From a virus, in IMG/VR virus record IMGVR_UViG_3300006947_000007, positions 18,406 to 82,405 of that record: a stretch of 64,000 bases of DNA; one strand, 5' to 3'. Shown in pieces: positions 7,321 to 64,000 of this stretch. Position 1 is the first letter of the stretch, and each line of letters begins with the position of its first letter. Both the position numbers and the translations under genes were made by a program. The notes beneath the pieces are model-generated. The model was not told the origin of the DNA, did no database searches, and worked only from the letters and a program-made list of their open reading frames with translations.

Positions 7321-8214
7321 TTATTTGAAGGCTTCGTCGAAGAATTCAGCCATTTTAGACATATATTTGGAATGTAAATGATGGTAATCATCATGACAGT
7401 ACTGCCGAAAGTGTCTCCTCATTACGGCTCCAGGTGGATTGTTTTTTGCTTCTTGACTCTTAAATTCAACAACCGATTTTTCATATTCCCATTGTATCAT
7501 ATTGTTATTTTTTAACATATTTAGACTTGCTGGAATACGGAACGAACTCATTAACGCCGGCGACCAGGAGAACCAATATACTTGTTTACCTTTGGTTTTT
7601 CTTAAGAACGAGTCTATAAATTCACATTGTGCTACGACATCTGAGTGTTTAGATTTAAGGCCGCCATTAACATTTGTTAAGACTTGCTTATATCCTCGCC
7701 ACTGTTCCTCTGTTAAACTATTAAATGACATACCGGTTTTTTCGGTCCAATATTGATTTAATTCTTCAATAGACATATTAGCATGAAATGAATCTATTAC
7801 CGGTGTCGCGTGTTCACGGTATTCTTCGTATAGGTTTTGGGGTAGACCATCTACCCATTCTTGAACTGGAAAGTAACGTTCATAGTGCTCATGGTAGTCT
7901 GAATTAACGTGTGCTGAAAGACGCTCTCCTTCAGGAATTTCTAGTACAAATACATCAGGATCATATCGATTTATTAATTCTAATATTCTTTTAAAGTAAG
8001 GTTCAATGCCTTGAGCAGGCTCACTACAATTGTAAATTTTATTATTAGGATGTCTTTGAGAAACTGCTTGAACTAGATTAGTTTCAAATGCAAATCTAGG
8101 ATTCGACTTTCTCTTTTCTCCGGGCCAACTATTAACATAAAGATTAGATTTAAATTCATCCTCACATTGGGACAAATAACTTGTTCCAATAAAGGCATAT
8201 GATTTATCTATCAA
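7321..8214 (-). CDS. SGNH-hydrolase-like protein
   Basis: N-terminal FIGTSY, C-terminal DDYHHL; paralog of 26063..26956. Confidence 0.45.
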   Translation of the reverse strand: MIDKSYAFIGTSYLSQCEDEFKSNLYVNSWPGEKRKSNPRFAFETNLVQAVSQRHPNNKIYNCSEPAQGIEPYFKRILELINRYDPDVFVLEIPEGERLSAHVNSDYHEHYERYFPVQEWVDGLPQNLYEEYREHATPVIDSFHANMSIEELNQYWTEKTGMSFNSLTEEQWRGYKQVLTNVNGGLKSKHSDVVAQCEFIDSFLRKTKGKQVYWFSWSPALMSSFRIPASLNMLKNNNMIQWEYEKSVVEFKSQEAKNNPPGAVMRRHFRQYCHDDYHHLHSKYMSKMAEFFDEAFK

Positions 8215-8582
8215 AACGGTACTTGAATATAATCATCTTCTTCTAAGTCGGGTGGTGTTAGAAGCTCTAATGTTATATGTTGCTCAACTGCTAAAGCATA
8301 CTCGTCAGCTAGTTGTTTAAGATGTGGATGTTTTTCTTCCATTTCTACATTACGGTCCAAATCTGCTGGAATACCTAATGCCCTTTCTATTCGCTGTAGG
8401 CGATAATTAACTTGGTCTAGTTCAGTATTGTCTTCTGCTAAATCTGAAAGCCTGGCTTTAAGAAATGGTTCATTAGCAAAGTCTATTCCTGATTCGGAAG
8501 TCATATATTTAATTGAGTTGCTATCTTCATTGTAATAACTATCTATGTCTAGTATATACTGGCCGTGTTCATCTGGGTTCAT
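8211..8582 (-). CDS. hypothetical protein
   Basis: Translationally coupled ORF. Confidence 0.55.
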   Translation of the reverse strand: MNPDEHGQYILDIDSYYNEDSNSIKYMTSESGIDFANEPFLKARLSDLAEDNTELDQVNYRLQRIERALGIPADLDRNVEMEEKHPHLKQLADEYALAVEQHITLELLTPPDLEEDDYIQVPF

Positions 8583-9874
8583 TTTGTTTCTCCTAATTCG
8601 ATCCTTTCTTCTTTCTTAGATCTTAGTGATGTAGCAATTGATCCACAGTTATCAATACAAATATTAAGCCTAGGCTTATCGGGATCATCTGTTTTATTAT
8701 CCCAACTATCATGTAAATCCTTTTGAAAGAATTTATGATGTAAGATATCTTCTAATGTATGATGACTTGTATAGTTCCACTTCTCATCATACTTGTTAAC
8801 ATAGTAATTTTGGTATTCGTTATCAGGCTGTCCTTGTTCGTTTGCTGAATCCTTGTTCCAAGGTCTACCAAAGTATGCTGTCATATGGCAACAAACATGG
8901 ACTCGTCCGTCCCATTCAATTTGTAGCTTTCCTTCATTGCCCCACTGACACCAAATGCTACAATTATTAGCATAGTCGTCCATATCGTTGTTAAACTCTT
9001 CGACAACAATTTTCTTTGCTTTTACTTCCATTTCTTTGTATGCTTCTGTAGTGTGACTGTGTTCGGCACCGTCGGACATGTCTTTCTTTTTTACCTTGCT
9101 AAAGCCATCAACTTCATAACTTGTTTCTTTGTCTTCCACAGTCATAACACCTGTTCTAATTGCTTCTTCTCTTAGTGTGTTAGAAATGTGTTCTGCCATT
9201 CTACTACGTCTAATATCAAACCTGGAGAATCCATATTCTTTTGCTAGTTTTTGAGCATCTTGTATCTGATGTTTGTTATGATCAAATTCTATAAACTGCC
9301 ATACTGCTACACCACCAGCATCCATAAACCACTTAGCTCTTTCTAATACTTTTTCGTAAGGTACACCCCTACGATACATTTGGTGTGTCTTATCGTCTGT
9401 GCCTTCTAAAGCAAATATAACTTCAGAGTTGTTAGGGTTATATCGTTCACTGGCAATCTTGCCTAGTTCAGTCCAAAATGCTTTATCTCTTACACCACCG
9501 TTTGTGCTAATCCATAAGTCAGTACGTCGGTTACGACCGTTTGCTTCACGCTCTGCTTTTTGTGAATCACTAACGTCTGCTATATGGTGTAAGATTTCAA
9601 TCAAGTCTGGGTGCATTATACAGTCACCAAACGTGCCATTAAAGTCTAATGTTTTAAGACCTCCCATTACTGTAGGAGTAAACACATTTTTAACAGTTGA
9701 CAACGGCATGTTACCCTTATGTCCTACTTGTATAGCAGGATTGATATCACCTTCTTTAAGTCCTAGTCGTGGAACATCTGACGATACACGCCTCAAGCAT
9801 CCAGGACAGAAACTATTACAGTTGGCTGTAATATCTATTGTAATTCTTCTAAGTTTTTTAGGGTCTAAGAACAT
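8579..9874 (-). CDS. radical SAM protein with C-terminal SPASM/twitch domain
   Basis: CNSFCPGC motif; C-terminal GRVHVCCH...CIDNC. Confidence 0.88.
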   Translation of the reverse strand: MFLDPKKLRRITIDITANCNSFCPGCLRRVSSDVPRLGLKEGDINPAIQVGHKGNMPLSTVKNVFTPTVMGGLKTLDFNGTFGDCIMHPDLIEILHHIADVSDSQKAEREANGRNRRTDLWISTNGGVRDKAFWTELGKIASERYNPNNSEVIFALEGTDDKTHQMYRRGVPYEKVLERAKWFMDAGGVAVWQFIEFDHNKHQIQDAQKLAKEYGFSRFDIRRSRMAEHISNTLREEAIRTGVMTVEDKETSYEVDGFSKVKKKDMSDGAEHSHTTEAYKEMEVKAKKIVVEEFNNDMDDYANNCSIWCQWGNEGKLQIEWDGRVHVCCHMTAYFGRPWNKDSANEQGQPDNEYQNYYVNKYDEKWNYTSHHTLEDILHHKFFQKDLHDSWDNKTDDPDKPRLNICIDNCGSIATSLRSKKEERIELGETK

Positions 9875-10500
9875 TATATCATATTGCTGTGGTCTAATAC
9901 ATAACCCACAGAATCCTTATTAAGCAAAACGTTAAGTACAACCATAGTCATATTATCATAGCCACAGTTAAATAGCAAATGCTGTTTACATGTATTTACA
10001 AAATACGTAGATCCGTAGTCCCAATGAAGAACTTTATCTTCTATCATCATGTAACTGTGTACTGGATTCATATTTTCTAATGGAATTAAAAGCCTAAATG
10101 AGTCTATATCTGTTCCGTAATTATCAATGTGTGCTGGAAAATATCCACCCGGTCGTAACTGTAATATATGGCATCTTATTAAGTGTTCTTTAATAGGATC
10201 TAATGTATCCTTAAATATGTCATAGACGGGTGTAGGTGTTTTAAAGTCACGTTCAGATAATGACGTGCCACACAAAGTGTTGTACTGTAGTAAGCTATCT
10301 AAGTCTGGTCCAGCACCTAGTTTGCCATCTAGATTTGTTATACTTAGACCCCACCTGTTGTTAACTGTACGTGGATTGTAGCGTGTATAATCATTTTCGT
10401 AGGGTAGTAGCTGTTCTAACGTATTATAAGGATTAATATCTTTATTAAGTTGAAACTGATCACCATATGCTGTTAAGGTGTTGTACAGTTGGAAGCTCAC
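9874..10500 (-). CDS. aspartyl/asparaginyl beta-hydroxylase-like 2OG-Fe(II) oxygenase
   Basis: PGGYFPAHID, RLLIPL, NTCKQHLLFN. Confidence 0.7.
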   Translation of the reverse strand: MSFQLYNTLTAYGDQFQLNKDINPYNTLEQLLPYENDYTRYNPRTVNNRWGLSITNLDGKLGAGPDLDSLLQYNTLCGTSLSERDFKTPTPVYDIFKDTLDPIKEHLIRCHILQLRPGGYFPAHIDNYGTDIDSFRLLIPLENMNPVHSYMMIEDKVLHWDYGSTYFVNTCKQHLLFNCGYDNMTMVVLNVLLNKDSVGYVLDHSNMI

Positions 10501-11477: not shown

Positions 11478-11909
11478 CTACTCTGACATCAACATTGGAT
11501 TTTTTGGAACAAAGGTTGAGATAGATCCTGCTACCTCTTCTGGCTCTTTGTCTGATACAGCGAGTATTTCTTTTGGGTCTACACGCCTCAACTTTACAAC
11601 TGCGCCAGTATCAGGATCTTCTACATCGATACCCCTACTCCAGCGACCGTGGCTGATGAGTATCCATTCGCCTATTTCGTAGTCATCTTTGTTGTCAGGA
11701 CCTTTAGCAAATACTCGACCCCAACGTGGTTTAATTCCCTCGTCTTTGCCGTCGTCTGATTGAAGAATAATTCCACCTTTAGTAGTCCTTGCTTCGAAGT
11801 TCATCTCTTCGATAATAACATTATCTTTTATGGGTATAAGTTTACCCTTAATAGCATGATATTGGGTAACCTTACCACCCATCTTACCTGCATCAAAATT
11901 TGGTATCAT
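11478..11909 (-). CDS. groES: co-chaperonin GroES
   Basis: LIPIKDNVII...TKGGIIL...GRVFAKGP pattern. Confidence 0.8.
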   Translation of the reverse strand: MIPNFDAGKMGGKVTQYHAIKGKLIPIKDNVIIEEMNFEARTTKGGIILQSDDGKDEGIKPRWGRVFAKGPDNKDDYEIGEWILISHGRWSRGIDVEDPDTGAVVKLRRVDPKEILAVSDKEPEEVAGSISTFVPKNPMLMSE

Positions 11910-12835
11910 ACTGCTTCTTCCTCCTCAAATAATTGTTCCTGAATAGCTTTTCGTTCTTTTTCAACACTACTAGGAACTGTTTTAGTTTCTTTAATTGCTA
12001 CTTGACTCGTATAAGAATCAGTTAATAAACTTTTATGTATAAAGAATCTTTCCATCTTCCGTGTATAATGATCCCATTTAGTTCCAACATCGGTGCCATC
12101 TGCTAATGTAATAACAAAGTCCCTTGCTAAGAACCAATCATAAATATCCTGGCAACTGTACCCAAACCGTTCAGGTTGTCCATGTACCATTTCTAGTTGA
12201 ACAATAGGTTTTTGATTTACTATTGTTTGTTCAGCACCTAGTACTACTGGAAACTCGTACCCTTCTGTGTCAACTTTAATAATGTCAACGTCTTTAAAAT
12301 CATACGAGTCTAGTGTGTTAACCTTAATAGTTACCTTCTCTGGCTCTATTGTTCTACGTCTTGCTTTGCCGCTTGGCAATGGAACATCAATATTTTCTAT
12401 ATGATTGTGACCAGCATTGTCTTTCTTAATTAGTATCTCAAATTGGCCTTTTGCGTCACCTAGGCCACGATTGTATGTACTAATATTGCCTGTAGTTTCT
12501 AACGATTCAGATTGATACCAGGATTTAATCATTTGGTCATCAGTCTGTGCTTGGGCTAATACAATATTTCTAAGTGCCATATTGTATGTTTGGGGAGTAG
12601 GCTCAAATCCGTGAACGTCTTTGGCCCATGTTGAATATTCTATACTGTTCATACCAATGTTCATACCTACATCTAATATAGTACGAGCATTTGGTTTTAA
12701 CTCTCTTAGTCTTAATAAGTTTTGTTTTTGATACGGACCAGCATTTGCTATTCGTTGTTGATAAAAAACATCATCCTTATAGATCCAATATTGTCTCCCA
12801 ATGGCGTTTGTTACTAGTTCTTCAATATAATTCAT
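11906..12835 (-). CDS. FkbM-family SAM methyltransferase
   Basis: LDVGMNIG, GFEP, IKVDTEGYE; start set at ATG 8 nt after GAGGG. Confidence 0.85.
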   Translation of the reverse strand: MNYIEELVTNAIGRQYWIYKDDVFYQQRIANAGPYQKQNLLRLRELKPNARTILDVGMNIGMNSIEYSTWAKDVHGFEPTPQTYNMALRNIVLAQAQTDDQMIKSWYQSESLETTGNISTYNRGLGDAKGQFEILIKKDNAGHNHIENIDVPLPSGKARRRTIEPEKVTIKVNTLDSYDFKDVDIIKVDTEGYEFPVVLGAEQTIVNQKPIVQLEMVHGQPERFGYSCQDIYDWFLARDFVITLADGTDVGTKWDHYTRKMERFFIHKSLLTDSYTSQVAIKETKTVPSSVEKERKAIQEQLFEEEEAV

Positions 12836-12863
12836 TAACATACCCTCTTGTGTTATAACTTTT

Positions 12864-12892
12864 ATTATAACACTATTTGGTTTGATTGTCAA
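12864..12892 (-). promoter_or_regulatory. sigma70-type promoter
   Basis: Perfect TTGACA-N17-TATAAT. Confidence 0.75.
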
Positions 12893-12927: not shown

Positions 12928-14136
12928 CTAAACTAGTTTATTTTTATCAAATTCAGCGGCTTCTTCCGAGCCTCCGGTAGCACTACCTTTACTATAAGAG
13001 TGAGCACCCATACCTGCTAGTTGGCCGTTTTGTACAATTAAATATGGATCTCTAATTGGAGTTCCATCAAAGAAACATTCTAGTATTTCTCTAACTCCAT
13101 CAGCATATCTTGTTTGTGCTGATAGTGAAGTACCTGAAGTATGTGGCGTCATACCGTGATTAGGCATTGTTCGCCATACATGATCATTAGGTGCTGGTTG
13201 TGGGAACCAAACGTCTCCTGCATAGCCACTTAACTGTCCTGACTCTAGTCCTCTAGCGATAGCATCTTTATCACATATCTTACCACGTGCTGTATTAATT
13301 ATATAAGCACCTTTTTTACACTTAGCAATCAACTCATCATTAAACATGTGTTCAGTTTCAGGGTGTAGTGGACAGCTAATGTTAATAACATCACAAACAG
13401 CAACTAAAGATTCTACTGTTTCGTGGAAAGTAAGATTTAACTCTTGCTCTACTGATTCAGGTAACCTATGTCGGTCCATGTAATGTAAATGTACATCAAA
13501 TGGTTTCATTTTTCGTAGCACATCAATACCAATACGTCCTGCCGCGATAGTACCTATGTTCATACCTTCAACGTCATAACTTCTTTTAACAGCGTCAGCA
13601 ATATGCCAACCGCCTTCGTTGACTATCTTGTATTGTGTGTGGTAATCTCTAACCATTGATAGTATCATCATAACGATATGTTCTGCTACACTTCTACTGT
13701 TACAGTATGTAACTTCAGTTACATCAATGTTATGATCCATTGCCGCTTCTAAATCTACATGATCAGATCCAATACCTGCTGTGATTGCCATCTTTAAGTT
13801 AGGTGCTGATTCCATTTTTTCTCTTGTTACATAGTAAGGCCAAAATGGTTGTGATATAACAATATCAGCATCAACTAATTCTTTGTCTGCTGTACAGCCT
13901 TCACCGTCTTTGTCACTAGTAACTACCAGTGTATGTCCTAGATCTTCTAAATACTTTCGTAGTCCTAACTCACCTGACACACATCCTAATAATTCCCCAG
14001 GAGTAAAATCTCTACCCTTTGGACTTGGTAATGTCATTCCATCTGGATATTTTTCTATTACTGGTAAATCGCTTAGTGGATAGCTTGTTGGCATACCATC
14101 TGTCGGGTCGTCATATAAAACACATAATATTTTCAT
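12928..14136 (-). CDS. fdh: NAD-dependent formate dehydrogenase
   Basis: KILCVLYDDP, ELLGCVSGELGLR, ISQPFWP, GIGSDH, AAGRIG, NTARG, GDVWFPQPAP, TPHTSG: full-length metal-independent FDH. Confidence 0.95.
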   Translation of the reverse strand: MKILCVLYDDPTDGMPTSYPLSDLPVIEKYPDGMTLPSPKGRDFTPGELLGCVSGELGLRKYLEDLGHTLVVTSDKDGEGCTADKELVDADIVISQPFWPYYVTREKMESAPNLKMAITAGIGSDHVDLEAAMDHNIDVTEVTYCNSRSVAEHIVMMILSMVRDYHTQYKIVNEGGWHIADAVKRSYDVEGMNIGTIAAGRIGIDVLRKMKPFDVHLHYMDRHRLPESVEQELNLTFHETVESLVAVCDVINISCPLHPETEHMFNDELIAKCKKGAYIINTARGKICDKDAIARGLESGQLSGYAGDVWFPQPAPNDHVWRTMPNHGMTPHTSGTSLSAQTRYADGVREILECFFDGTPIRDPYLIVQNGQLAGMGAHSYSKGSATGGSEEAAEFDKNKLV

Positions 14137-14851: not shown

Positions 14852-15361
14852 TTATCGCAGAAACTCTGAGAAGTCTAAACTGTAATATATTGGATTAATC
14901 CTATTAATTCCAATTTTGTATAATACAAAACTAGACACACTAGATCCTCTGCCTACTCCCCAAACTATATTATGTTTCCTCATAGTTTCTACTAGGTAGT
15001 ACATGAAATTTAACAATGGCAATAAGTTACGTTCTTGGAAAGCCAATAGTTCTTCACCTGCCCGTTGTAGCTCTGTGTCACTGTCACATTGTTCTAATAC
15101 CCACTTTGATATGTCAAAATCTATATATTCTTTGGGCATAAACCAGTTGCTTTGGTTATTTTTATCAAATTCTTCTACACTAATATCCAAAGGTACATAC
15201 TGCTTTAACTTTGGAACATCACTATATAATTCCTCTACTGCTTTGTTAAACTTAATAGAGTCCTCAATGATAATAGTATTTAGGTCTATCTTTGGATTAG
15301 CATAGATTATTTTTATAGCCTCTGCTTCGTTTAAATAAACTCGCCCGTAATGATCTTTCAT
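14852..15361 (-). CDS. DNA polymerase III alpha (DnaE) fragment
   Basis: WGVGRGSSVSSFVLYKIGI...LDFSEFLR; ends before the PDIDxD catalytic motif. Confidence 0.8.
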   Translation of the reverse strand: MKDHYGRVYLNEAEAIKIIYANPKIDLNTIIIEDSIKFNKAVEELYSDVPKLKQYVPLDISVEEFDKNNQSNWFMPKEYIDFDISKWVLEQCDSDTELQRAGEELLAFQERNLLPLLNFMYYLVETMRKHNIVWGVGRGSSVSSFVLYKIGINRINPIYYSLDFSEFLR

Positions 15362-15367
15362 ACTAGT

Positions 15368-15396
15368 ATTATACAATATTACAAGTTAAAAGTCAA
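15368..15396 (-). promoter_or_regulatory. sigma70-type promoter, probably leaderless transcript
   Basis: TTGACT-N17-TATAAT-N6-ATG. Confidence 0.7.
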
Positions 15397-53695: not shown

Positions 53696-53935
53696 ATGGA
53701 CAATGTAAAAACAACAACAGTTAAGCCACACATCAAGTGGGACGGCTTTAGAAAACAATACAACGGTATTATTAAAAACCTTTTAAACAATGTAGACATT
53801 TGTAATGAGCGTTATGTTAAAGAGGGTGAAGAAGGATATCTTGTACAGCGTGATGCGTATATAAACGAAATAGAAACAATGAAAGCATTTATCAAAACAG
53901 AAGAGATACGTTTAGGATATTATAACGATGAATAA
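53696..53935 (+). CDS. hypothetical protein
   Basis: ORF track; coupled to next gene. Confidence 0.55.
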   Translation: MDNVKTTTVKPHIKWDGFRKQYNGIIKNLLNNVDICNERYVKEGEEGYLVQRDAYINEIETMKAFIKTEEIRLGYYNDE

Positions 53936-54098
53936 GATTCCAATGAAAGGTGGCGATGAGTACGATGCCCTTACTAAGGCACGGAAGATTCACCATTGGA
54001 GCAAAGGTCAACTTAAAAAGATCAAACGAAGTTATAACAAACGCTTTCGTAAAGAAGGAAAGAAAATAGATGCAACAAAAATCAGAGTACTTATATGA
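53928..54098 (+). CDS. small basic protein (MNKIPMKGGDEYDALTKARK...)
   Basis: AGGA RBS; 56 aa; not in ORF track. Confidence 0.6.
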   Translation: MNKIPMKGGDEYDALTKARKIHHWSKGQLKKIKRSYNKRFRKEGKKIDATKIRVLI

Positions 54099-54624: not shown

Positions 54625-54636
54625 GATATTATAACG

Positions 54637-54804
54637 ATGAAGAAATCAACTAATAGAGATATCAAAAAAGCAACACAACTTCAACACATTAAACAAAAAC
54701 TACACGACTTAAAGAACACTACTAAGAGTCGTAAAAAAGATAGCCTTGTTAAGAACTTAAAGAACTTAATGAAACGAGCAGTACGAAAAGGGACATACAA
54801 GTAA
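54637..54804 (+). CDS. small basic protein (MKKSTNRDIKK...)
   Basis: AGGA RBS; 55 aa. Confidence 0.5.
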   Translation: MKKSTNRDIKKATQLQHIKQKLHDLKNTTKSRKKDSLVKNLKNLMKRAVRKGTYK

Positions 54805-54805
54805 C

Positions 54806-55132
54806 ATGATAACAATAACTGAAGTAGGTGCCGAACGAGTAACTCGGTATTTAGAAAACAGAAAGAAAGGATTGGGCATCAGGGTCAAAATTCAAACGAC
54901 AGGATGTTCGGGTTACGCATATCATTTAGAGTTTGTTGATGAAGCAAATGACGATGATAGTATATTTGAATCAAACGGTGTAAAGATTTTAGTTGATAAT
55001 AAATCATTAACGATGATTGATGGCACAGAATTAGATTACAAAGTTGATGGCCTCAACGCAGGATTTGCCTTTAAGAATCCATACGAAGATGCAACATGCG
55101 GATGCGGAGAATCATTTACACTTAAAAACTAA
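54806..55132 (+). CDS. iscA: A-type Fe-S carrier IscA
   Basis: RKKGLGIRV..TTGCSGYAY.LEFVDE...CGCGESF; gamma/beta-proteobacterial style. Confidence 0.9.
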   Translation: MITITEVGAERVTRYLENRKKGLGIRVKIQTTGCSGYAYHLEFVDEANDDDSIFESNGVKILVDNKSLTMIDGTELDYKVDGLNAGFAFKNPYEDATCGCGESFTLKN

Positions 55133-55141
55133 AAGGAAACT

Positions 55142-55297
55142 ATGAGAACAAAAATAAGAATGCAATCATCGGAATCTCCACACTTTTATACACGACATAA
55201 GAATAATCGATTACATCCAGAAAAGATGAAGTTAAATATGTTTGACCCAACAGTAAGAAAGCACGTGGTGTATAATGAAAAGAAGATTAAGAAATAG
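55142..55297 (+). CDS. rpmG: 50S ribosomal protein bL33 (Zn-independent type)
   Basis: [51 protein letters not shown]; AAGGA RBS; missed by ORF track. Confidence 0.9.
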
Positions 55298-55338
55298 GGG
55301 TTGACAACAGCGGCTGTTTGCAGTATACTAACAACACT

Positions 55339-55797
55339 ATGAGAATATCTAAAGAGTTCGAAAGCAGTTTAGAATTCGGCGACAAGCTAGAGAAGAACTA
55401 TGCTCTTACAGTGATCCAGAAGATACATCCTAAGTGTACTATACACGAACCAGAAGAGTATAGAGAAGATGGATTAGCAGTTCCTGATCATATAGTAAAG
55501 AAGGGTAAAAAAATTGTAGCCTTTTATGATAGCAAGAACAAGCGAAGCACATATAAAGTAAGAGGCGTACCAGAAAGATTCTGGAGCGTAGATGAGAAAC
55601 TATTAGAGTATAGAACGTATGCTCTAAAACATAAAGTTCCATGCTACTTGTTATTTTACAATAAGAGTAGTGATAAAGAGAATGTGTACATTGTTGATGT
55701 TACAGTTGAACCTAAATTCTACAAACGAATTAATAACAGATTTGGAGAACATTGGTTCGGCTACTACATATCACAAACAACACCATATGCGATATGA
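55339..55797 (+). CDS. PD-(D/E)xK nuclease-like protein
   Basis: E...PD...FYDSK pattern; TTGACA-N17-TATACT just upstream. Confidence 0.5.
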   Translation: MRISKEFESSLEFGDKLEKNYALTVIQKIHPKCTIHEPEEYREDGLAVPDHIVKKGKKIVAFYDSKNKRSTYKVRGVPERFWSVDEKLLEYRTYALKHKVPCYLLFYNKSSDKENVYIVDVTVEPKFYKRINNRFGEHWFGYYISQTTPYAI

Positions 55798-56150
55798 CAC
55801 TATCAGACGTAGTATTAAAAAAGAACACTAGGAACCATGACAGCAAGTACCGTCATATAACTAACAACACAAGTGACTATCATGCTATAATAGATTTCGG
55901 CAGTTTTGATTTAAGCATTGTCCAGAACGATAGAGACTACGGTAACAATCAAAATCAATTTCAAATTGTCGTATTCGGTAAAGATGGAGCAACAGAACTA
56001 GACTTACCAAACATACCAAAGGCGGGCTATGGATTAAACACACCTAGCTACAACAGTTGGTTAACATTCACAGACTTAGACAGCATACTCAGACAACTAG
56101 AGTTTGAAGCATTAGCAGTACATAAGTTTAAACCCAGACAAGTACAGTAA
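55794..56150 (+). CDS. hypothetical protein
   Basis: ATGA overlap with upstream gene. Confidence 0.55.
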   Translation: MTLSDVVLKKNTRNHDSKYRHITNNTSDYHAIIDFGSFDLSIVQNDRDYGNNQNQFQIVVFGKDGATELDLPNIPKAGYGLNTPSYNSWLTFTDLDSILRQLEFEALAVHKFKPRQVQ

Positions 56151-56157: not shown

Positions 56158-56234
56158 GTCTCCATAGCTCAGTTGGATAGAGCAACAGCCTTCTAAGCTG
56201 TAGGTCATAGGTTCGAATCCTATTGGGGACACCA
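56158..56234 (+). tRNA. tRNA-Arg(UCU)
   Basis: GTCTCCA...TGGGGAC-A-CCA cloverleaf, anticodon loop CTTCTAA. Confidence 0.95.
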
Positions 56235-56545: not shown

Positions 56546-57295
56546 TTATACTAGCCTACCGAAGCCCCACATTCGTTCTAAACAAAACCAACACACTTCA
56601 CAATGCGATGAGAAATCATCTGTCCATGCTTCGCAACTACGTGTAAGTGGGAATAGGGTATCTAGTAATCCGAAGTGTGAATACAGTTCAGCAACTGCTT
56701 TCTTATCTACATTAATCAATGGACTAAAGATATTACCAGGTGTTCCCCAATCAGGTGGGAACGTTGCGGGGTCACCGTAGTATTGTATGGGTAACAGCTT
56801 ATCTGTTTTGTTACGTTCGGGCGGCATACTTACTTCTTGATGTTTCTCATCTTGTCCTACGAACTCGCTAGGGTTTGCTGTAACACCATTGAACAAGCAA
56901 CGTATCTTTAAATTATCAAACAGCTTTTGGGTTATTAATCTTTGATCCTCATTATAGTTTGGATTGGCTTTACCTTCATCCCCCATGTGCGGGTTTATTT
57001 CTATAATGGGGTCCGAGCCTAGTCCTGTGATGTGCTCACCAAACGTAACAGTAGGCCATTGTTCCTTTAAGAAAGCAACTACACCTTTAGCAAACTTTAC
57101 TTGATATGCTTTACCTGGTTGGTCCATTGTGATCGGATACACAATAGGATCGCTGTTACATTCTTCTACAATAGCTTTACATAACATCCAACCTACTACA
57201 GCCGAGTCGGCACCGCCACTTACCTTATATCCTATATTCTTATAGTGTTTAGGAATTGTAAATTCAATACGGCCTTGTTTTGTATCTAATATCAT
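56546..57295 (-). CDS. QueC-like PP-loop ATP pyrophosphatase
   Basis: SGGADSA; TRSCE...HCEVCWFCLER Zn motif. Confidence 0.75.
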   Translation of the reverse strand: MILDTKQGRIEFTIPKHYKNIGYKVSGGADSAVVGWMLCKAIVEECNSDPIVYPITMDQPGKAYQVKFAKGVVAFLKEQWPTVTFGEHITGLGSDPIIEINPHMGDEGKANPNYNEDQRLITQKLFDNLKIRCLFNGVTANPSEFVGQDEKHQEVSMPPERNKTDKLLPIQYYGDPATFPPDWGTPGNIFSPLINVDKKAVAELYSHFGLLDTLFPLTRSCEAWTDDFSSHCEVCWFCLERMWGFGRLV

Positions 57296-57312
57296 ATGCT
57301 ATCTCAGTATAA

Positions 57313-57341
57313 TTGGATAGGCTCTTTGTTAACTAATTCAA
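57313..57341. repeat. 29-bp perfect direct repeat, copy 1
   Basis: TTGGATAGGCTCTTTGTTAACTAATTCAA, also at 57794..57822. Confidence 0.9.
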
Positions 57342-57763
57342 ACATTATTAATCTCCATCCAACGTTTTACTACTGGCATCAGTTGTTCGTGTGTATTATC
57401 AAACCAACCTTCGATGTGATAGTCTACATTACTGGGTGGTTCAAACATTGCATTAGTATCATCAAAGCGTCCTTCTTTAATAGTGTCCATCCATATTGTG
57501 AAGTCTGGATTAAAGTTTTGTCTTGCTTCTTCTGTAGGACAAATGAAATCACACACTGCAATTTTACCTGCCATAACTACACCATCTGCTAAGTGTTTCA
57601 TACGAACCGATTGTCTAATGCGACCTGATAGACTAAAGTCCCAATCATTATAACTTGTTCTAACTACGTCAGCATTAATCCATACACCATTAACTAGTTT
57701 AGCAAATGGTTCTGCTAGTGTTGACTTACCGCTACCTGGAAGTCCGCATATTAATATTTTCAT
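57338..57763 (-). CDS. cysC: adenylyl-sulfate (APS) kinase-like protein
   Basis: GLPGSGKST, ADVVR...DWDFS..GR, FICP, FEPP; start MKILI after GAGGA. Confidence 0.75.
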   Translation of the reverse strand: MKILICGLPGSGKSTLAEPFAKLVNGVWINADVVRTSYNDWDFSLSGRIRQSVRMKHLADGVVMAGKIAVCDFICPTEEARQNFNPDFTIWMDTIKEGRFDDTNAMFEPPSNVDYHIEGWFDNTHEQLMPVVKRWMEINNV

Positions 57764-57793
57764 CTTGCTTGTCCTCATGCCAGCAGTAAAACG

Positions 57794-57822
57794 TTGGATA
57801 GGCTCTTTGTTAACTAATTCAA
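57794..57822. repeat. 29-bp perfect direct repeat, copy 2
   Basis: Identical to 57313..57341. Confidence 0.9.
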
Positions 57823-58481
57823 TCAAGTTTACCAAAGCCCCATTCACGTTCTTTACAGTACCAACACTTGCCACAATGTTTACTAAAGTCTAACGTTACT
57901 TCTTCGCAACTGCGGGTCTCTAAGAACAGCGTATCCAGGAGATTATATTGTTTGTATATACTTGCTACACCTTGTTTATCTGTATTAATAAACGGTCGAT
58001 AACCAGGATGACTATTATCGCCGTTCCATTGAGCAAACTTGCCAAAGCGAGTATCGTCGAACTCACCTATTGACTCATCTTCAAACTGTTCTGATATTTC
58101 CCTTGGGGGGTTTTGAGTAATACCGTTGTAGTGTCTTTCAATCTTAAATTCGTTGTATGCTTTATCTAGTACTACGTCTTGAGCATCACTGTAATCCATA
58201 CTGCCTGTATCGTTGGTAACGTGTGCTATTACTTTTACAGATGGGAACTCGTGTTGTAACCATGTTATAACTTTTTTACTGAATATTCTTTGATACGGTT
58301 TATCGGTATGGTCAGTTGTTATAATTACAATTTCTACGTCTAAGTTTTGTTTGTGTATTGTTTTGAATATCATATACGAAACTCCGGCACTATCAGCACC
58401 ACCGGATACTTTAATACCTATTCGTTTTACTGTATCAAGATTGCCAAAGTTATAAGTGTCTTGTTCTGTTTTAAATATCAT
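57819..58481 (-). CDS. QueC-like PP-loop ATP pyrophosphatase
   Basis: SGGADSA; TRSCE...HCGKCWYCKER. Confidence 0.75.
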   Translation of the reverse strand: MIFKTEQDTYNFGNLDTVKRIGIKVSGGADSAGVSYMIFKTIHKQNLDVEIVIITTDHTDKPYQRIFSKKVITWLQHEFPSVKVIAHVTNDTGSMDYSDAQDVVLDKAYNEFKIERHYNGITQNPPREISEQFEDESIGEFDDTRFGKFAQWNGDNSHPGYRPFINTDKQGVASIYKQYNLLDTLFLETRSCEEVTLDFSKHCGKCWYCKEREWGFGKLD

Positions 58482-58953
58482 GTTTTAACATTTCTCTAAT
58501 TTCGTTATATGGCTTATCAAAACTTATTTGTAAAAAAAATCTATCTTTACTTGATTTAGGGACCGAATGTTCTTGTTGGTTGTTTTGTAAGTAAACACCT
58601 AAGTTATGATGTAGCGTCCAAGCGTAGCCAACATCATTTCTAAATATAGTAGGTGTCTCTGAAGCATTTAATTGAAACGTCATACTTGATTTTCTTTTGT
58701 CATCAGTATGCCAAGGTACCTCACCTTTGTTTTTTAAAAACACAGGCCACCCGACTTTTAAAAAATCCTTTGCTTTTTCTTTAAACCAGTTTGGTAATAA
58801 TTCTGCTTCGGTAACATGATTGTTATCAGGCGCATTATCTTTCTCAATTAAATACGGTTCAAAGTTACTATGCTGTGCTATTTGATATAGTTCGTCTCTT
58901 TCATTTTGATTCAAATTTATATCTACTTTACAATAAAAATCTTTTACTTCCAT
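58471..58953 (-). CDS. 2OG-Fe(II) oxygenase-like protein
   Basis: PWHTD, EHSV...RFFLQ. Confidence 0.6.
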   Translation of the reverse strand: MEVKDFYCKVDINLNQNERDELYQIAQHSNFEPYLIEKDNAPDNNHVTEAELLPNWFKEKAKDFLKVGWPVFLKNKGEVPWHTDDKRKSSMTFQLNASETPTIFRNDVGYAWTLHHNLGVYLQNNQQEHSVPKSSKDRFFLQISFDKPYNEIREMLKHDI

Positions 58954-58954
58954 G

Positions 58955-59647
58955 TTATAATTTCCCAAATCCCCATTCACGTTCTTTACAAAACCAGCAG
59001 TCATTACAATGCTCGTCAAAGTTATTTGTCCATGCTTCGCAACTTCTAGTTTGGTTAAACAATGTATCTTCTAATCCATATTGCTTATATAACTCAGCGA
59101 CACCTTTTTTGTTTGTGTTAATAAGAGGCCTATAACTTGGTTGGTTTGGATTGTTGTTACATTGAGGTTGGTTCGGTACATCACGTTCTGGTGTACCACC
59201 ATTTAATACCGGACCTTCTTTACTAAAAAATTGTTCATACACTTCTTTTGGAGGGTTAGCAGTAATGCCATTATAATGTCTTTCAATACCTAACATATAT
59301 GCTTCATCTAATAAATTGTCTTGCCTGTTATGATACTCTGTACTGGTCCATTTATTACCTACTTTAACTGCTGGGCAAGTATTAGTAAGATGCTCGCCTA
59401 TCGTTACATTAGGAAATTCGTTTATTAACCACATAAGAACCTTATCAGAATAAACTTTTTGATATGCTTTTTGTTCGTGTACAGTTGTTAGTAAAGTTAC
59501 TTTAGTATTGTACTTGCATTCTTGTATTGTTTTGAATAACATATAAGCAACAATGGCCGAGTCAGCGCCACCGGATAATTTAATACCTATGTGCTTGTTG
59601 TTTAAACCTTCAAATTGATATGTGTCTTGATCGGTCCAGTATATCAT
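58955..59647 (-). CDS. QueC-like PP-loop ATP pyrophosphatase
   Basis: SGGADSA; TRSCE...HCNDCWFCKER; start MIYWT. Confidence 0.75.
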   Translation of the reverse strand: MIYWTDQDTYQFEGLNNKHIGIKLSGGADSAIVAYMLFKTIQECKYNTKVTLLTTVHEQKAYQKVYSDKVLMWLINEFPNVTIGEHLTNTCPAVKVGNKWTSTEYHNRQDNLLDEAYMLGIERHYNGITANPPKEVYEQFFSKEGPVLNGGTPERDVPNQPQCNNNPNQPSYRPLINTNKKGVAELYKQYGLEDTLFNQTRSCEAWTNNFDEHCNDCWFCKEREWGFGKL

Positions 59648-59706
59648 ATACTTACTTATAAGGTCTGAACATAAGATAATAAATACTTGATACAAAGGGA
59701 ACACCT

Positions 59707-61149
59707 ATGGGATTAACAAGAGCAAAAGTACAAAATATAGACTTTGATGTGACTAACATCACTGACCCGCTGATACGAATCAATAGCGGCGAAACAGGAT
59801 CAGCAGATAAAGACGCCGGTATTGTAATAGAACGAGGCGACGATACTAACGTTGCTATACTGTATGACGAAAGTGCTAACGAATTTGCTGTAGTTAATAC
59901 TTCCGAAACAGGTACAACAGCAGGCAATGTTACTATATCAAGTTATGCTAATATTAAAGCAGATGAGTTTCATGGAGATGGTTCTAACTTAACTGGTATT
60001 GGAAGTTCATACACACATCCTAATCACAGTGGCGATGTAGTATCTTCGGGCGATGGAGCATTAACTATTCAAACAGATGCTGTTGATATTGCTATGTTAT
60101 CTGCTTCTGGAACTGCTTCAAGTAGTACGTTTTTAAGAGGAGATAACTCTTGGGCTACTGCGGCTGGAACTCTAGATGGGTTAACAGATTGTACAGTATC
60201 AGCCTCAACTCCAACAGCTACAAGCAACCCTTCAGCAGTAGGACATCTATGGATAGAAGAAGATAGAGGTTTGGCTTACATTTGTACAGACGCAACTACC
60301 AATGCAAATGTTTGGAGAGGTGTTGGAATAGAATCTCTTTCTACAGTTGAATATTTAGTTGTTGCCGGCGGCGGCGGCGGCGGTGGTAATAATGGTACTG
60401 GTAATGCTGGTGGCGGTGGTGCAGGTGGTTATAGAACTAGTACTAGTTTTGCTATCACAACAGGTTCATCTTATACAGTTACAGTTGGAGCAGGCGGTGG
60501 CGGCGCGGCGACAAACGTAGGTTCTAATGGTGCTAACTCGGTATTTGGTAGTATTACTTCTACAGGCGGTGGAGGTGGTGGTGCTTACTCAAACCAGGCT
60601 GGACTTGCTGGTGGCTCTGGAGGCGGTGGTCCACAGACTAATGGTAGTGGTGGTGCAGGAACATCAGGCCAAGGCAATGCTGGTGGAGACAATGGTGGCA
60701 TAGGTGGCTCAGGCGGCGGCGGTGCTGGTGGTACTGGTTATTCTAGCACTGGCTCTAGTAATAGAGAAGGTGGTGTAGGTGGTATTGGTCTAGCCTCGTC
60801 AATAACTGGTTCATCTGTGTATAGAGCAGGTGGCGGTGGTGGCGGTACACACAACACAGGTACTGGTGGATACGGAGTTTCAGGTGCTGGTGGTCAAGGT
60901 GGTGGGGGACATGGACATTACAAAAACACAAACCAATCCGAAGCCGGCGGTGCTAATCAAGGTGGTGGCGGTGGTGGTGGCGGTGAAACCAGTCACGCTG
61001 GAGCAAATGGTGGTTCGGGTGTTGTTATTATTGCTTATTCAACAGACTATTCGGCCGCAACAACAAGTGGTACAGTATCAGTTTCTACGGCATCTAGATC
61101 TGGCTACCGTGTATATACTTTCACTGGTAGCGGCACAATTACATTTTAG
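59707..61149 (+). CDS. glycine-rich tail fibre/virion protein
   Basis: DAGIVIERG, YTHPNH, VEYLVVAGGGGGG, GGSGVVII, YTFTGSGT; ATAAATA upstream. Confidence 0.8.
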   Translation: MGLTRAKVQNIDFDVTNITDPLIRINSGETGSADKDAGIVIERGDDTNVAILYDESANEFAVVNTSETGTTAGNVTISSYANIKADEFHGDGSNLTGIGSSYTHPNHSGDVVSSGDGALTIQTDAVDIAMLSASGTASSSTFLRGDNSWATAAGTLDGLTDCTVSASTPTATSNPSAVGHLWIEEDRGLAYICTDATTNANVWRGVGIESLSTVEYLVVAGGGGGGGNNGTGNAGGGGAGGYRTSTSFAITTGSSYTVTVGAGGGGAATNVGSNGANSVFGSITSTGGGGGGAYSNQAGLAGGSGGGGPQTNGSGGAGTSGQGNAGGDNGGIGGSGGGGAGGTGYSSTGSSNREGGVGGIGLASSITGSSVYRAGGGGGGTHNTGTGGYGVSGAGGQGGGGHGHYKNTNQSEAGGANQGGGGGGGGETSHAGANGGSGVVIIAYSTDYSAATTSGTVSVSTASRSGYRVYTFTGSGTITF

Positions 61150-62223: not shown

Positions 62224-62258
62224 ATATTAGGTATTTAAAAAAAGATGAAAAATAATTG

Positions 62259-63515
62259 TTAATTGGGTGCTTTTGGAGAAGGCAATGTGTCGTATATGTG
62301 TTCAATAAAGGAATAAACTATAGGCACATGGTCTTTAATATGCTGTTTCCTAGCAGTATCAAATGCCTTAGTTGCGTTGGCTAACATCCAGAGATTAGGT
62401 TTAGTGTAATCTGTTAATAATCCTTTTAGAAGTTTCTTAAGAGGTTTGTGTGATTCCTCCATTAATCTAACAACATACGGATCTGTAATGTTTAATATAC
62501 GTTCTATCTCGTTGTGCCTAGCGTTGACTGGCAAGTTGTTAACTGTGGCCCAGTTAGGTCCTTCTATATTATAGAACTCTACAGGTAACGTGATAGTTTC
62601 TAAATTAATTGCTTTGTTATAATCAGCTAACCAAAACAGAAAGTCATATACATTAAAAAGGTTTAATGCTTGTAATGTAAAATGTATTTGTCTATGTTCT
62701 GATAAGTTGACCCATTCGGTTATTACTTCTTGTGCTTTATTCCAATGCAACGGAGAGCGGATATATTCTAATGTTTTTCCTATGCCGTCGATGCTTAATT
62801 GTGCTCCTATACTACGAAACTTTTTAAGTTTGTCAAACATTGCTTTGTTATTAAAATTAGTACAGTTGGTTGTAATGTGTATGTTACAATTAGTCTTGTC
62901 AGCATCTATTAACGTGTCTAGCATTTGAGATACCTCTGGCATAATAGTAGGCTCGCCACCTAAGAATTTTATATCGCTATCATCTGTTAACCCAGATATT
63001 AAATGGTTTATATTATCTTTACTCATGACACTTGGAGAAAATTCTACTGTGTGCCCAGCCCACTTAGACAAGTAAGGGTTTTTCTTTTGCTCTTTATCTA
63101 GTTGACTACTATACTTGGGTGTACACATTCTACATTTTAAGTTACATAGGTTGCTCGGGCGTATATCGAGGTCTAACGGCGTGTTTAAATTGGTTCCAGT
63201 AACAACATTAAGTTCTGGACTGCTGTGCTTTTGATACTTCGCATCAAACATTTGTCTATCACTATCGATGCCATCTTCTTCTAAACTCCAACAACTAGAA
63301 CATATATCAAGTTTTTCACCTGCTAACATTCGTCGTCTAATGTCTTGGTAGTAATCACTTTGCCAATGATTCTCTAAATCCAATGATTCGACAGTATGTG
63401 TTCCTAATGGTTCGTTGCTAGTACAACACACTCGAGGCCCATCATTCGGGTGTATGTATTTGTGTATGAATGGAGCATAGCATATATTTTTATGATGCTT
63501 GGTATTACTCATCAT
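62259..63515 (-). CDS. radical SAM protein with N-terminal twitch domain
   Basis: ICYAPF..VCC..CSSC; CNLKCRMC; GGEP. Confidence 0.92.
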   Translation of the reverse strand: MMSNTKHHKNICYAPFIHKYIHPNDGPRVCCTSNEPLGTHTVESLDLENHWQSDYYQDIRRRMLAGEKLDICSSCWSLEEDGIDSDRQMFDAKYQKHSSPELNVVTGTNLNTPLDLDIRPSNLCNLKCRMCTPKYSSQLDKEQKKNPYLSKWAGHTVEFSPSVMSKDNINHLISGLTDDSDIKFLGGEPTIMPEVSQMLDTLIDADKTNCNIHITTNCTNFNNKAMFDKLKKFRSIGAQLSIDGIGKTLEYIRSPLHWNKAQEVITEWVNLSEHRQIHFTLQALNLFNVYDFLFWLADYNKAINLETITLPVEFYNIEGPNWATVNNLPVNARHNEIERILNITDPYVVRLMEESHKPLKKLLKGLLTDYTKPNLWMLANATKAFDTARKQHIKDHVPIVYSFIEHIYDTLPSPKAPN

Positions 63516-64000
63516 TTTGTCGCGGTAGGTATTTGTATGTACATATCTTCAATACATGAATATACTTCAGGCACATAATCTTTAATATGTTGTCGTCTAG
63601 CAGTATCGTGGTCTTTAATCCATCTAGATAGTTTCCAAGTATCGCCTTCAGACTTATCGTTTAATAATTCTGTTAAACAATTTGCTAGTGGATTATTTGA
63701 TTCATTCATTAATCTAACAACATACGGATCAGTTATATTTAACAACCTGTTTACTTCGATGTTTCTTTCGTAAACTGGCAAGTTCCTAACATGCACTAAG
63801 TTGGGTTGATCGATTAAATAGAACTCCACGGGTAATGTGATATTTTCCTTGTCTATTGCTTTATTAAACTCAGCTAACCAAAAAAGAAAATCATAAACGT
63901 TAAAGAGATTTAATGCTTGGAAACAGAAATGTATTGCTCGATGATTGGTTAATTCGATCCATTGAGTTATTACTTCTTGTGCTTTATCCCAATGTAATGG
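63512..64000 (-). CDS. radical SAM protein, C-terminal part (runs off window); tandem paralog of 62259..63515
   Basis: Frame open to window end: PLHWDKAQEVIT...QALNLFNVYDFLFWLA. Confidence 0.85.
   Translation of the reverse strand, partial: PLHWDKAQEVITQWIELTNHRAIHFCFQALNLFNVYDFLFWLAEFNKAIDKENITLPVEFYLIDQPNLVHVRNLPVYERNIEVNRLLNITDPYVVRLMNESNNPLANCLTELLNDKSEGDTWKLSRWIKDHDTARRQHIKDYVPEVYSCIEDMYIQIPTATK

Follow-up and report, generated by a model that had tools for sequence, protein, structure and literature searches.

A radical SAM-rich set of putative tailoring genes in a marine jumbo phage, shared with Bdellovibrionota and possibly acting on a sugar- or aminocyclitol-type moiety

Phage gene clusters for glycan modification, such as the lipopolysaccharide-type clusters of T4-like cyanophages and the virion glycosylation clusters of mycobacteriophages, centre on glycosyltransferases and nucleotide-sugar enzymes. 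Radical S-adenosylmethionine (SAM) enzymes are costly and oxygen-sensitive. An A-type Fe-S carrier together with up to 12 radical SAM genes has been described from environmental genomes of marine T4-like viruses; in one of them, TARA_ERS488813_N000010, the carrier is accompanied by all 12 (Nishimura et al. 2017, PMC5332604). Here we analysed 64,000 nucleotides (the window), bases 18406-82405 of the linear IMG/VR virus record IMGVR_UViG_3300006947_000007 (record length, 82,405 bases), whose source, judged from its genes, is a jumbo phage related to Pseudomonas phage PA5oct. The window holds ten radical SAM genes together with amidinotransferase, QueC-like and other accessory genes. We tentatively favour the reading that this enzyme set tailors a sugar-, aminocyclitol- or nucleotide-sugar-type moiety and is expressed at least partly from T4-type late promoters.

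Pfam, together with a six-frame hidden Markov model (HMM) search of the record, gave nine complete radical SAM genes. All nine are on the minus strand and all lie within the window. The tenth is cut by the contig end; its C-terminal 162 residues are present and show 62% identity to the C-terminus of the adjacent gene in blastp. Ten was also the number given in an earlier note on this DNA. The genes are as follows.

8579-9874, minus strand: radical SAM protein with a C-terminal twitch/SPASM-like Cys domain (Pfam Radical_SAM and SPASM, Cys pattern)
21237-22517, minus strand: N-terminal-twitch radical SAM protein (Pfam; NF033640, 185.3 bits)
36028-37185, minus strand: core radical SAM class B, with a CNYKCSYC motif and four conserved C-terminal Cys (Pfam, 49.9 bits)
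37178-38362, minus strand: N-terminal-twitch radical SAM protein (NF033640, 229.8 bits)
39132-40178, minus strand: core radical SAM class C, with a C-terminal twitch-like Cys domain (Pfam)
40367-41680, minus strand: core N-terminal-twitch radical SAM protein, the best NF033640 match (374.0 bits)
43980-45245, minus strand: N-terminal-twitch radical SAM protein (NF033640, 244.9 bits; Pfam SPASM match at residues 6-40)
46826-48028, minus strand: N-terminal-twitch radical SAM protein, first gene of the island described below (NF033640, 237.2 bits)
62259-63515 (complete) and 63512-64000 (partial), minus strand: tandem pair of N-terminal-twitch radical SAM proteins (NF033640, 282.7 and 43 bits)

In six of the complete genes, a Cys cluster of the form C-x17-22-CC-x34-50-CxxC lies ~45 residues ahead of the CxxxCxxC motif, which is at residues 111-134. 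All six scored above the curated cut-off (170 bits) of the NCBIfam model NF033640 (N_Twi_rSAM; 398 positions), and the truncated copy matched its C-terminal part only. Pattern and model scores thus agree on the six N-terminal clusters noticed earlier, and these six genes plus the truncated one are assigned to NF033640, an already named family. No assayed member of NF033640 was found, and the name was absent from the literature searched. The copies in the window are therefore seven N-terminal-twitch proteins, two C-terminal-twitch proteins (8579 and 39132, which share a C-x18-CC...C-x3-C domain and 25% identity over their full length) and one CNYKCSYC protein (36028).

The auxiliary Cys of all three classes were 93-100% conserved in alignments of 56-115 relatives. 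In the 40367 class, N-terminal Cys 6, 24, 25, 76 and 79 were at least 98% conserved in 61 orthologues. The 36028 class is the most conserved gene of the system, with C310, C332, C353 and C358 at least 98% conserved, and C237, C256, C257, C324 and C328 were conserved in the 39132 class. The seven-Cys SPASM motif (TIGR04085/PF13186; CX9-15GX4C-gap-CX2CX5CX3C-gap-C) was found in none of the three classes, and Pfam SPASM matches were partial and below threshold. With four to five conserved auxiliary Cys per class, the domains point to the twitch type and not to full SPASM, and all three classes are predicted to be twitch-type enzymes with one extra Fe-S cluster. A phmmer search of the Protein Data Bank (PDB) sequences with 36028 and 39132 gave nothing useful.

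The radical SAM genes are accompanied by genes for Fe-S cluster supply.

22489-22821, minus strand: A-type Fe-S carrier (Pfam Fe-S_biosyn, six-frame HMM)
22856-23260, minus strand: 2Fe-2S ferredoxin, adjoining radical SAM gene 21237 (Pfam Fer2)
54806-55132, plus strand: second A-type Fe-S carrier of the window (PF01521, 76 bits)

The record has three A-type carriers, two of them inside the window, and an IscS-like cysteine desulfurase is encoded upstream of the window. By these assignments the phage provides its own Fe-S cofactor supply, made up of the desulfurase, the three carriers and the ferredoxin. Radical SAM gene 21237-22517 directly follows the ferredoxin (fdx) and iscA-like genes and is itself followed by genes of baseplate type.

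To place the system among its relatives, IMG/VR was searched by pattern with six N-terminal-twitch paralogues, which gave at least 549 confirmed viral loci; 40367, as a protein query, had 1254 homologues (E<=1e-10), and the contigs that carry them are as long as 300 kb. In cultured phages, single N-terminal-twitch homologues were present in Ralstonia phage RsoM2USA, where the neighbouring genes are all annotated as hypothetical, and in Vibrio phages K566/K567; tblastn of 36028 and megablast of the island against cultured phages gave no match. GTDB genomes contained 199 relatives, nearly all in Bdellovibrionota; some are on megabase-scale chromosomes, and a cultured Bdellovibrio isolate is among the carriers. 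Co-occurrence was counted in 80 viral and 79 bacterial loci; the 158 fetched loci (~17-21 kb each) had 887 radical SAM open reading frames (ORFs). Five related phage records of 122-233 kb (845 kb and 80 radical SAM matches in all) carried 10-19 radical SAM matches each.

Orthologues of 36028 were found in 66/80 viral and 33/79 bacterial loci, with 59-91% identity. The 39132 type was present in 67 of the 80 viral loci and the QueC-like family in 49, and the amidinotransferase family occurred in 14 array loci (8 viral, 6 bacterial). The conserved core thus consists of the 40367, 36028 and 39132 classes and the QueC-like ATPase, in both viruses and Bdellovibrionota. This recurrence of radical SAM, QueC-like and amidinotransferase genes bears out the earlier suggestion of a tailoring set. 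Several partners of related arrays are missing from the window: B12-radical SAM proteins, NodU/TobZ-type carbamoyltransferases, a short-chain dehydrogenase/reductase (SDR) with an S-Y-K triad, a pyridoxal phosphate-dependent (PLP) aminotransferase-like family and a repeat-bearing methyltransferase-like protein (cluster A9; no PDB match). PF05118 hydroxylases are also frequent partners.

Three bacterial arrangements are informative. In Bdellovibrionota, a 934-aa protein (L140:14063-16867) joins a NodU/TobZ-type carbamoyltransferase to SPASM and radical SAM domains of the N-terminal-twitch kind. In a Halobacteriovoraceae genome of the same phylum, a 599-aa protein (L152:9256-11055) has an N-terminal-twitch radical SAM part followed by C-terminal tetratricopeptide (TPR) repeats. 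At least nine Bdellovibrionales genomes have a syntenic chromosomal operon of two GT2 glycosyltransferase genes followed by three radical SAM genes, the first of the N-terminal-twitch type. No literature on Bdellovibrio with radical SAM and SPASM was found. The near-exclusive sharing of the enzyme set with Bdellovibrionota is undescribed in the literature searched, as are the three-class core and its accessory palette.

In the window, the genes form one contiguous island and several scattered units. The island runs from 48028 down to 33312 (~15 kb), with overlapping genes on one strand. It contains six radical SAM genes, five P-loop paralogues, a sulfotransferase candidate, an SGNH protein, an HxD...H protein and a DUF2061 protein. 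Near-identical island DNA was present in marine metagenomes of at least six studies. The scattered units are as follows.

8579-10500: radical SAM gene and 2-oxoglutarate (2OG) oxygenase gene
21237-23260: radical SAM gene, A-type carrier and ferredoxin
50697-51809: amidinotransferase
56546-59704: three QueC-like ATPases and a kinase
62259-64000: two radical SAM genes

Between the units lie replication, structural and lysis genes, three tRNA genes and a plus-strand block of small genes. Pfam identified the T4-superfamily replication and structural genes as clamp loader, GroES-like Cpn10, DNA ligase, a Pol III alpha fragment and MazG, and further structural and lysis matches as gp9/10-like baseplate proteins, a He_PIG fibre-like protein and a glucosaminidase. 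The clamp loader shares 59% identity with its counterpart in the Pseudomonas jumbo phage PA5oct and 46% with that in Agrobacterium phage Atu_ph07. The record is ~23% complete by CheckV, from which the full genome is probably around 350 kb; the GC content of the window is 33-42%. The earlier note had treated positions 7321-64000 as one pathway. This does not hold for the 57 kb as a whole, since the clamp loader, ligase, Pol III alpha fragment, GroES, baseplate and fibre genes, lysis enzyme, tRNAs and a sigma70-driven small-gene block lie within the same span.

This layout raises the possibility that there is no single pathway, and that the genes are unrelated auxiliary genes, many radical SAM paralogues among them, with separate targets. 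Replication, structural, lysis and early genes are interspersed with the units; accessory content differs between close relatives (the closest relative, locus L001, lacks 37178 and 38359); and FkbM, 2-hydroxyacid dehydrogenase and cupin genes do not co-occur with the arrays. However, in viruses and bacteria alike the QueC-like family is tightly associated with the three radical SAM classes, often as overlapping genes, and a carbamoyltransferase is fused to an N-terminal-twitch radical SAM protein. We consider separate targets rather improbable.

The accessory enzymes with family assignments are as follows.

50697-51809, plus strand: StrB1/AGAT-family amidinotransferase (family profile against 1bwd)
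56546-57295, 57819-58481 and 58955-59704, minus strand: three QueC-like PP-loop ATPases (Pfam QueC, C-terminal matches)
57338-57874, minus strand: P-loop kinase resembling adenosine 5'-phosphosulfate (APS) kinase (Pfam APS_kinase, PF01583)
40180-40377, minus strand: DUF2061 small membrane protein of 65 aa, between two radical SAM genes (PF09834, 39.2 bits, above cut-off)
11906-12892, minus strand: FkbM-family methyltransferase (Pfam Methyltransf_21, 68 bits)
9874-10500, minus strand: 2OG/Fe(II) oxygenase of the Asp/Asn beta-hydroxylase type, PF05118-like (hhalign, HxD...H motif)

The amidinotransferase was missed by Pfam. A profile of its family (13 members) matched StrB1 (1bwd) with E=1.8e-66, positions 5-368 on 3-346; the next matches were SxtG (3.7e-52), AGAT (1.8e-51) and then HsvA. 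D220/H218 and H353-C354, the latter in GGxHCxTxD, were invariant across the 13 members and aligned with the C-terminal GGGFHCATLD of StrB1. Homology to StrB1 therefore extends over the full length with the catalytic Cys-His-Asp conserved, in agreement with the earlier identification. The DUF2061 and FkbM assignments of the earlier note were likewise recovered; FkbM was found in only 1/80 related viral loci and is not conserved with arrays elsewhere.

The three QueC-like ATPases named in that note were supported by Pfam and by invariant residues: S26-G27-G28-x-D30-S31 together with C192, C203, C206 and C209, the four Cys of a QueC-type C-terminal zinc site, in 30 members. The Pfam QueC match covers the C-terminal 55 residues only, and the QueC equivalog TIGR00364 scored 17.9 bits against a cut-off of 150.3. 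The APS kinase was a weaker case. PF01583 gave 33.8 bits, above its cut-off of 21.1, but over profile positions 4-91 of 152 only, and the NCBIfam apsK models, which have cut-offs of 127-163, gave 28 bits. The protein has a Walker A motif and, at the position of DGDxxR, the sequence NADVVR.

These proteins bear on nucleic-acid hypermodification, in which QueC-like ATPases, P-loop kinase-like proteins, radical SAM enzymes and amino-group enzymes would build a modified DNA or tRNA base. DNA modification is common in jumbo phages. The QueC-type C-terminal Cys cluster of the three ATPases, a P-loop family with a nucleoside monophosphate (NMP) kinase-like fold, and the presence of MazG and three tRNA genes in the window agree with such a role. 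However, the ATPases score well short of the QueC equivalog cut-off, the nearest relatives of the amidinotransferase are StrB1, SxtG and AGAT, and the Bdellovibrionales enzymes sit with GT2 genes. General Pfam scans of ~70 window ORFs, from a record with ~23% of the genome, revealed no TGT/DpdA, QueD, FolE, QueE-equivalog or dUMP-hydroxymethylase. We regard hypermodification as quite improbable; the window scans showed no 7-deazaguanine or thymidine-hypermodification hallmark, in line with the earlier view that DNA is a less likely target.

For the remaining island proteins and some proteins outside the island, assignments came from structure models, motifs and neighbour searches.

42399-43259, minus strand: putative Stf0-like sulfotransferase with a PRSGSN motif (ESM-Atlas neighbours)
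33312-33998, 33991-34677 and 34670-35650, minus strand: three paralogues of a P-loop-like family (blastp paralogy)
41673-42359, minus strand: paralogue of the P-loop-like family (blastp paralogy)
45242-46033, minus strand: paralogue of the P-loop-like family, the modelled member (AlphaFold2 model, pLDDT 84.7)
43256-43987, minus strand: SGNH/GDSL-fold esterase or acyltransferase (AlphaFold2 model, pLDDT 66)
7321-8214, minus strand: paralogue of 26063-26956 (26% identity)
38359-39135, minus strand: unannotated family with an HxD...H motif, candidate Fe(II)/2OG oxygenase (motif only)
58471-59019, minus strand: HxD...H candidate (motif only)

Pfam, NCBIfam and PHROGs gave no match for 7321, 26063, 25302, 33312-35650, 38359, 41673, 42399, 45242, 54070 or 58471. 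The earlier note had counted one clear and five degenerate sulfotransferases. For the first, 42399, the PRSGSN motif and ESM-Atlas neighbours in viral Stf0 (PF09037) clusters (score 0.97, 200/256 features) are suggestive, but neither 42399 nor the P-loop paralogues matched any Pfam or NCBIfam model, Stf0 included, and phmmer of 42399 against PDB sequences gave nothing useful. A six-frame PF09037 search of the record was also negative, as it was in control genomes. Stf0-like sulfotransferase is a lead only for this gene.

The other five (33312, 33991, 34670, 41673 and 45242) are a genuine family with a shared PAGAGxSFLGYLQ motif and a conserved His. The family is rare (21 representatives among 1.84 billion proteins). 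Its fold is a tie: the 45242 model gave Z 8.2 with NMP kinases and, over its full length, Z 7.7-7.4 with sulfotransferases, Foldseek gave no match at E<=1e-3, and hhalign did not link the family to 42399.

Among three proteins called SGNH-like, one was upheld. The 43256 model was of moderate quality; all of its 27 Foldseek PDB matches at E<=1e-3 were SGNH/GDSL proteins (among them carbohydrate esterases CE2, TesA and the peptidoglycan O-acetyltransferase PatB), and Ser10, D219 and H221 (block I Ser, block V Asp/His) were invariant. The pair 7321/26063 was not linked to it by hhalign (probability 1.6%). Among the 2OG oxygenases, the PF05118-type assignment of 9874 was well supported, with hhalign probabilities of 100% and 99.8% to clusters whose members match PF05118, but 38359, 58471 and 54070 have the HxD...H motif alone. 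In the 38359 family, D112 and H237 were invariant and H110 nearly so; none of its 28 members matched Pfam. The acylation capacity and most of the sulfation capacity proposed earlier rest on unverified folds.

Some of these proteins could instead suit remodelling of membrane lipid or lipid A, with radical SAM enzymes acting on acyl or isoprenoid chains, LpxO/OlsC-type hydroxylases, an SGNH lipase and an Stf0 sulfolipid step. PF05118 includes LpxO and OlsC, and Stf0 starts sulfolipid synthesis in mycobacteria. The top solved-structure match of the N-terminal-twitch profile was the archaeal tetraether lipid synthase Tes (7tol, E=1e-8), which was also among the weak NCBIfam matches, and the SGNH model matched TesA lipases. 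However, all of the structure and profile matches concern the generic radical SAM core, and the enzymes all look soluble, DUF2061 being the only membrane-type protein. We know of no lipid role for amidino-, carbamoyl- or aminotransferases. Lipid remodelling is very improbable in our estimation.

The hydroxylase and the radical SAM enzymes also bear on modification of protein or peptide, in which twitch/SPASM maturases would crosslink, epimerise or oxidise virion or host proteins or a ribosomal peptide, with PF05118-type hydroxylases and PP-loop enzymes as co-tailoring enzymes. The weak NCBIfam radical SAM matches were mostly maturases of ribosomally synthesised and post-translationally modified peptides (RiPPs), and the solved-structure matches included SkfB and SuiB. 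PF05118 is the Asp/Asn beta-hydroxylase family, the Halobacteriovoraceae protein bears TPR repeats, and radical SAM gene 21237 adjoins baseplate and fibre genes. However, there was no candidate precursor. The sole widely conserved small ORF of the arrays encodes a 74-aa protein (31 loci; e.g. L003:7067-7297), located after the repeat-bearing methyltransferase-like gene and missing from the window. It is uniformly conserved (~70% column identity) with no variable core, and it had no meaningful PDB match, RiPP recognition element (RRE) domains included. The window proteins have no common N-terminal tag. The search for RiPP hallmarks thus gave no variable-core small ORF, shared tag or RRE match, although short precursors can escape such screens. 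The StrB1-type amidinotransferase, carbamoyltransferase, SDR and aminotransferase are small-molecule enzymes, which also argues against protein or peptide as substrate, and we consider it unlikely.

Timing of expression was addressed through promoter motifs. The T4 late-promoter consensus TATAAATA occurs in 3 copies in the window versus ~15 expected. Each copy is 7-42 nt ahead of a start: that of 20502-21170 (gp9/10-like baseplate), 46826-48028 (radical SAM) and 50697-51809 (amidinotransferase). The two copies next to tailoring genes are as follows.

48063-48070, minus strand: TATAAATA motif, 42 nt upstream of the first island radical SAM gene
50690-50697, plus strand: TATAAATA motif, at the amidinotransferase start

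The earlier note had reported an ATAARTA motif at three sites. Those ahead of radical SAM gene 46826 and amidinotransferase gene 50697 were confirmed, but the third, an ATAAATA ahead of 59707, is at 59679 and not at 59653. In the 80 related viral loci, TATAAATA was 4-fold depleted overall, and 38% of its copies were 8-70 nt upstream of starts, ~12-fold over expectation. Radical SAM genes made up 19 of the 33 motif-preceded genes. We infer that T4-type late promoters drive at least part of the transcription. The enriched late-type motif before radical SAM genes lends late transcription some support, but the earlier claim of late action is overstated, given a sigma70-like promoter inside the island, considered below.

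On the plus strand, sigma70 promoters were found at 48022-48050, 48128-48156 and 48636-48664, two of them perfect (12/12) with TG extensions and one 11/12. They head a block of small unannotated genes (48116-56150), which looks like an early-gene region divergent to the radical SAM island. A stretch of ~320 bp in this block (50280-50600, plus strand) is of low complexity, pyrimidine- and A-rich, and contains short repeats of the CTAT/TTACTA type. None of the three plus-strand frames is interrupted in it. The TATAAATA motif and the amidinotransferase gene come directly downstream, and the stretch is probably non-coding, either regulatory or origin-like.

Selection on the island genes was estimated against L001. 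The dN/dS values, which are approximate because dS was high, were 0.045 for 36028, 0.09 for 40367, 0.12 for 39132 and 0.17 for the P-loop paralogue 41673; the adjacent DNA ligase gave 0.17, so the island genes are equal or lower. The earlier note had held that relaxed selection (dN/dS near 1) would refute its reading; the range observed, 0.045-0.17, indicates purifying selection.

The sugar- or aminocyclitol-tailoring reading is favoured because the nearest characterised relatives of every assignable accessory enzyme handle small molecules rich in hydroxyl and amine groups: StrB1 acts on an aminocyclitol phosphate, Stf0 on trehalose, and NodU/TobZ on Nod factor and aminoglycosides. SGNH carbohydrate esterases, SDRs and aminotransferases as relatives, and the bacterial operon with glycosyltransferases, point the same way. 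Gene content, family membership, conservation, co-occurrence, purifying selection and the places of the motifs were observed; the substrate class, the reaction types and the timing are inferred. The radical SAM enzymes would abstract H atoms from a small moiety rich in hydroxyl and amine groups, in reactions of oxidation, epimerisation, dehydration or C-methyl type. Amidation would fall to the PP-loop enzymes, through activation of a carboxyl or carbonyl, and other accessory enzymes would add amidino, sulfate, acyl and hydroxyl groups. The product may be carried on a virion or cell-envelope glycoconjugate or be a free metabolite; fibre and baseplate genes nearby and the late motif make the glycoconjugate plausible.

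Several observations weigh against this reading. The 82 kb record has no GT2, the sole glycosyltransferase (GT) family searched there, and the five related phage records had no GT2 or GT8 and one clear GT1/4; the virion proteins or glycans that the earlier note proposed as targets gain no support here. No scaffold-building enzyme is in sight in the record, which is ~23% of the genome. PDB profile and phmmer searches gave no close solved structure for the radical SAM enzymes. PF05118 hydroxylases, twitch/SPASM radical SAM enzymes and the TPR-fused protein would fit protein or peptide substrates equally, the sulfation branch consists of one Atlas lead and a partial APS-kinase match below NCBIfam cut-offs, and FkbM and several of the "like" proteins are not conserved with the arrays. 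As to timing, the minus-strand gap in the island (46034-46825) has an 11/12 sigma70-like promoter with a TG extension at 46579-46551. Downstream of it are a 75-aa ORF (46295-46522), which has a strong ribosome-binding site and is 39% conserved in another related locus (L002), and a 26-aa hydrophobic ORF. Early or middle transcription of the downstream genes is therefore possible. Metatranscriptome contigs from four runs in three studies had short exact matches within island genes. They indicate presence only, being assembled contigs that may derive from carried-over DNA and that give no level, strand or timing; regions not covered by them carry no meaning.

Because recognised glycosyltransferases are nearly absent, the set looks tailoring-only. 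It may modify a host-made substrate or produce a free metabolite. A more specific form of the favoured sugar/aminocyclitol reading is that marine jumbo phages and predatory Bdellovibrionota share a large radical SAM pathway, for which each partial phage genome has 10-19 or more of these genes. The pathway would make a new, heavily modified class of sugar- or aminocyclitol-like molecule, as a free metabolite or a surface decoration, with a use in attack on bacterial cells or their takeover, and the N-terminal-twitch enzymes would catalyse reactions that are new to radical SAM chemistry. We consider this possible but doubtful.

The tRNA genes of the window are as follows.

4665-4739, minus strand: tRNA-Glu (ARAGORN)
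24109-24183, minus strand: tRNA-Trp(CCA) (ARAGORN), within the same-strand 168-aa ORF 23954-24460, which has no family match
56158-56234, plus strand: tRNA-Arg(TCT) (ARAGORN)

ORF 23954-24460 may be spurious, or may represent two small genes on either side of tRNA-Trp. Among the replication genes is a full-length gene of the D-2-hydroxyacid/formate dehydrogenase family (12928-14136, minus strand; 2-Hacid_dh_C, 160 bits), which showed no co-occurrence with radical SAM arrays elsewhere. A 174-aa ORF (14852-15376, minus strand) matches the Pol III alpha NTPase domain over positions 23-94 only and may be a piece of a split or interrupted dnaE-type polymerase gene. The 480-aa Gly_rich_2 protein encoded at 59707-61149 (plus strand), with a fibre-like N-terminus and ATAAATA ahead, is divergent to the QueC-like/kinase block and is likely structural (fibre).

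Phages of the oxic surface ocean still spend tens of kilobases and their own Fe-S genes on 10-19 or more radical SAM enzymes under strong purifying selection. Outside viruses, NF033640 is concentrated in the predatory Bdellovibrionota. Identification of the substrate would allow a function to be assigned to thousands of genes from the environment, probably bring new radical chemistry to light, and show what an abundant clade of marine jumbo phages does to its host or virion. A cultured Bdellovibrio with N-terminal-twitch genes, such as strain HCB2-146, and the single homologues in RsoM2USA and K566/K567 offer experimental handles.

Already known are the enzyme superfamilies, the N-terminal-twitch family by its name and the fact that marine T4-like phages can be rich in radical SAM genes. 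NF033640 describes the same CxxxCxxC motif and N-terminal Cys-rich twitch-like domain, with whole-model scores in the window; it is a bioinformatic definition, and the window differs in its expansion to seven copies per 64 kb in a phage. The genomes of Nishimura et al. (2017) likewise belong to marine T4-superfamily phages with A-type carriers and many radical SAM genes. That study (PMC5332604) counts the radical SAM proteins as clients of Fe-S metabolism and does not treat enzyme classes, accessory enzymes, a Bdellovibrionota counterpart or function. The RiPP maturases SkfB, SuiB, AlbA and anSME share the radical SAM core and an auxiliary Cys domain, with weak profile matches to SkfB (9e-7) and SuiB (9e-6); in contrast to SPASM maturases, the window enzymes have five auxiliary Cys and not seven, and no precursor or RRE was found. 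Phage glycan-modification clusters resemble the window in that tailoring genes lie close to the structural genes of a large myovirus and late-type motifs are present, but the phages studied here have hardly any glycosyltransferases and radical SAM enzymes predominate. The BtrN, StrB1 and TobZ-NodU systems resemble it in the single auxiliary cluster per radical SAM enzyme, in the StrB1-like amidinotransferase, and in the carbamoyltransferase, SDR, aminotransferase-like and B12-radical SAM proteins of related arrays. Unlike aminoglycoside systems, the phage has no 2-deoxy-scyllo-inosose or inositol-phosphate synthase and no recognised glycosyltransferase; compared with BtrN, to which no sequence-level link was obtained, the twitch domain of the window enzymes is at the opposite end of the protein.

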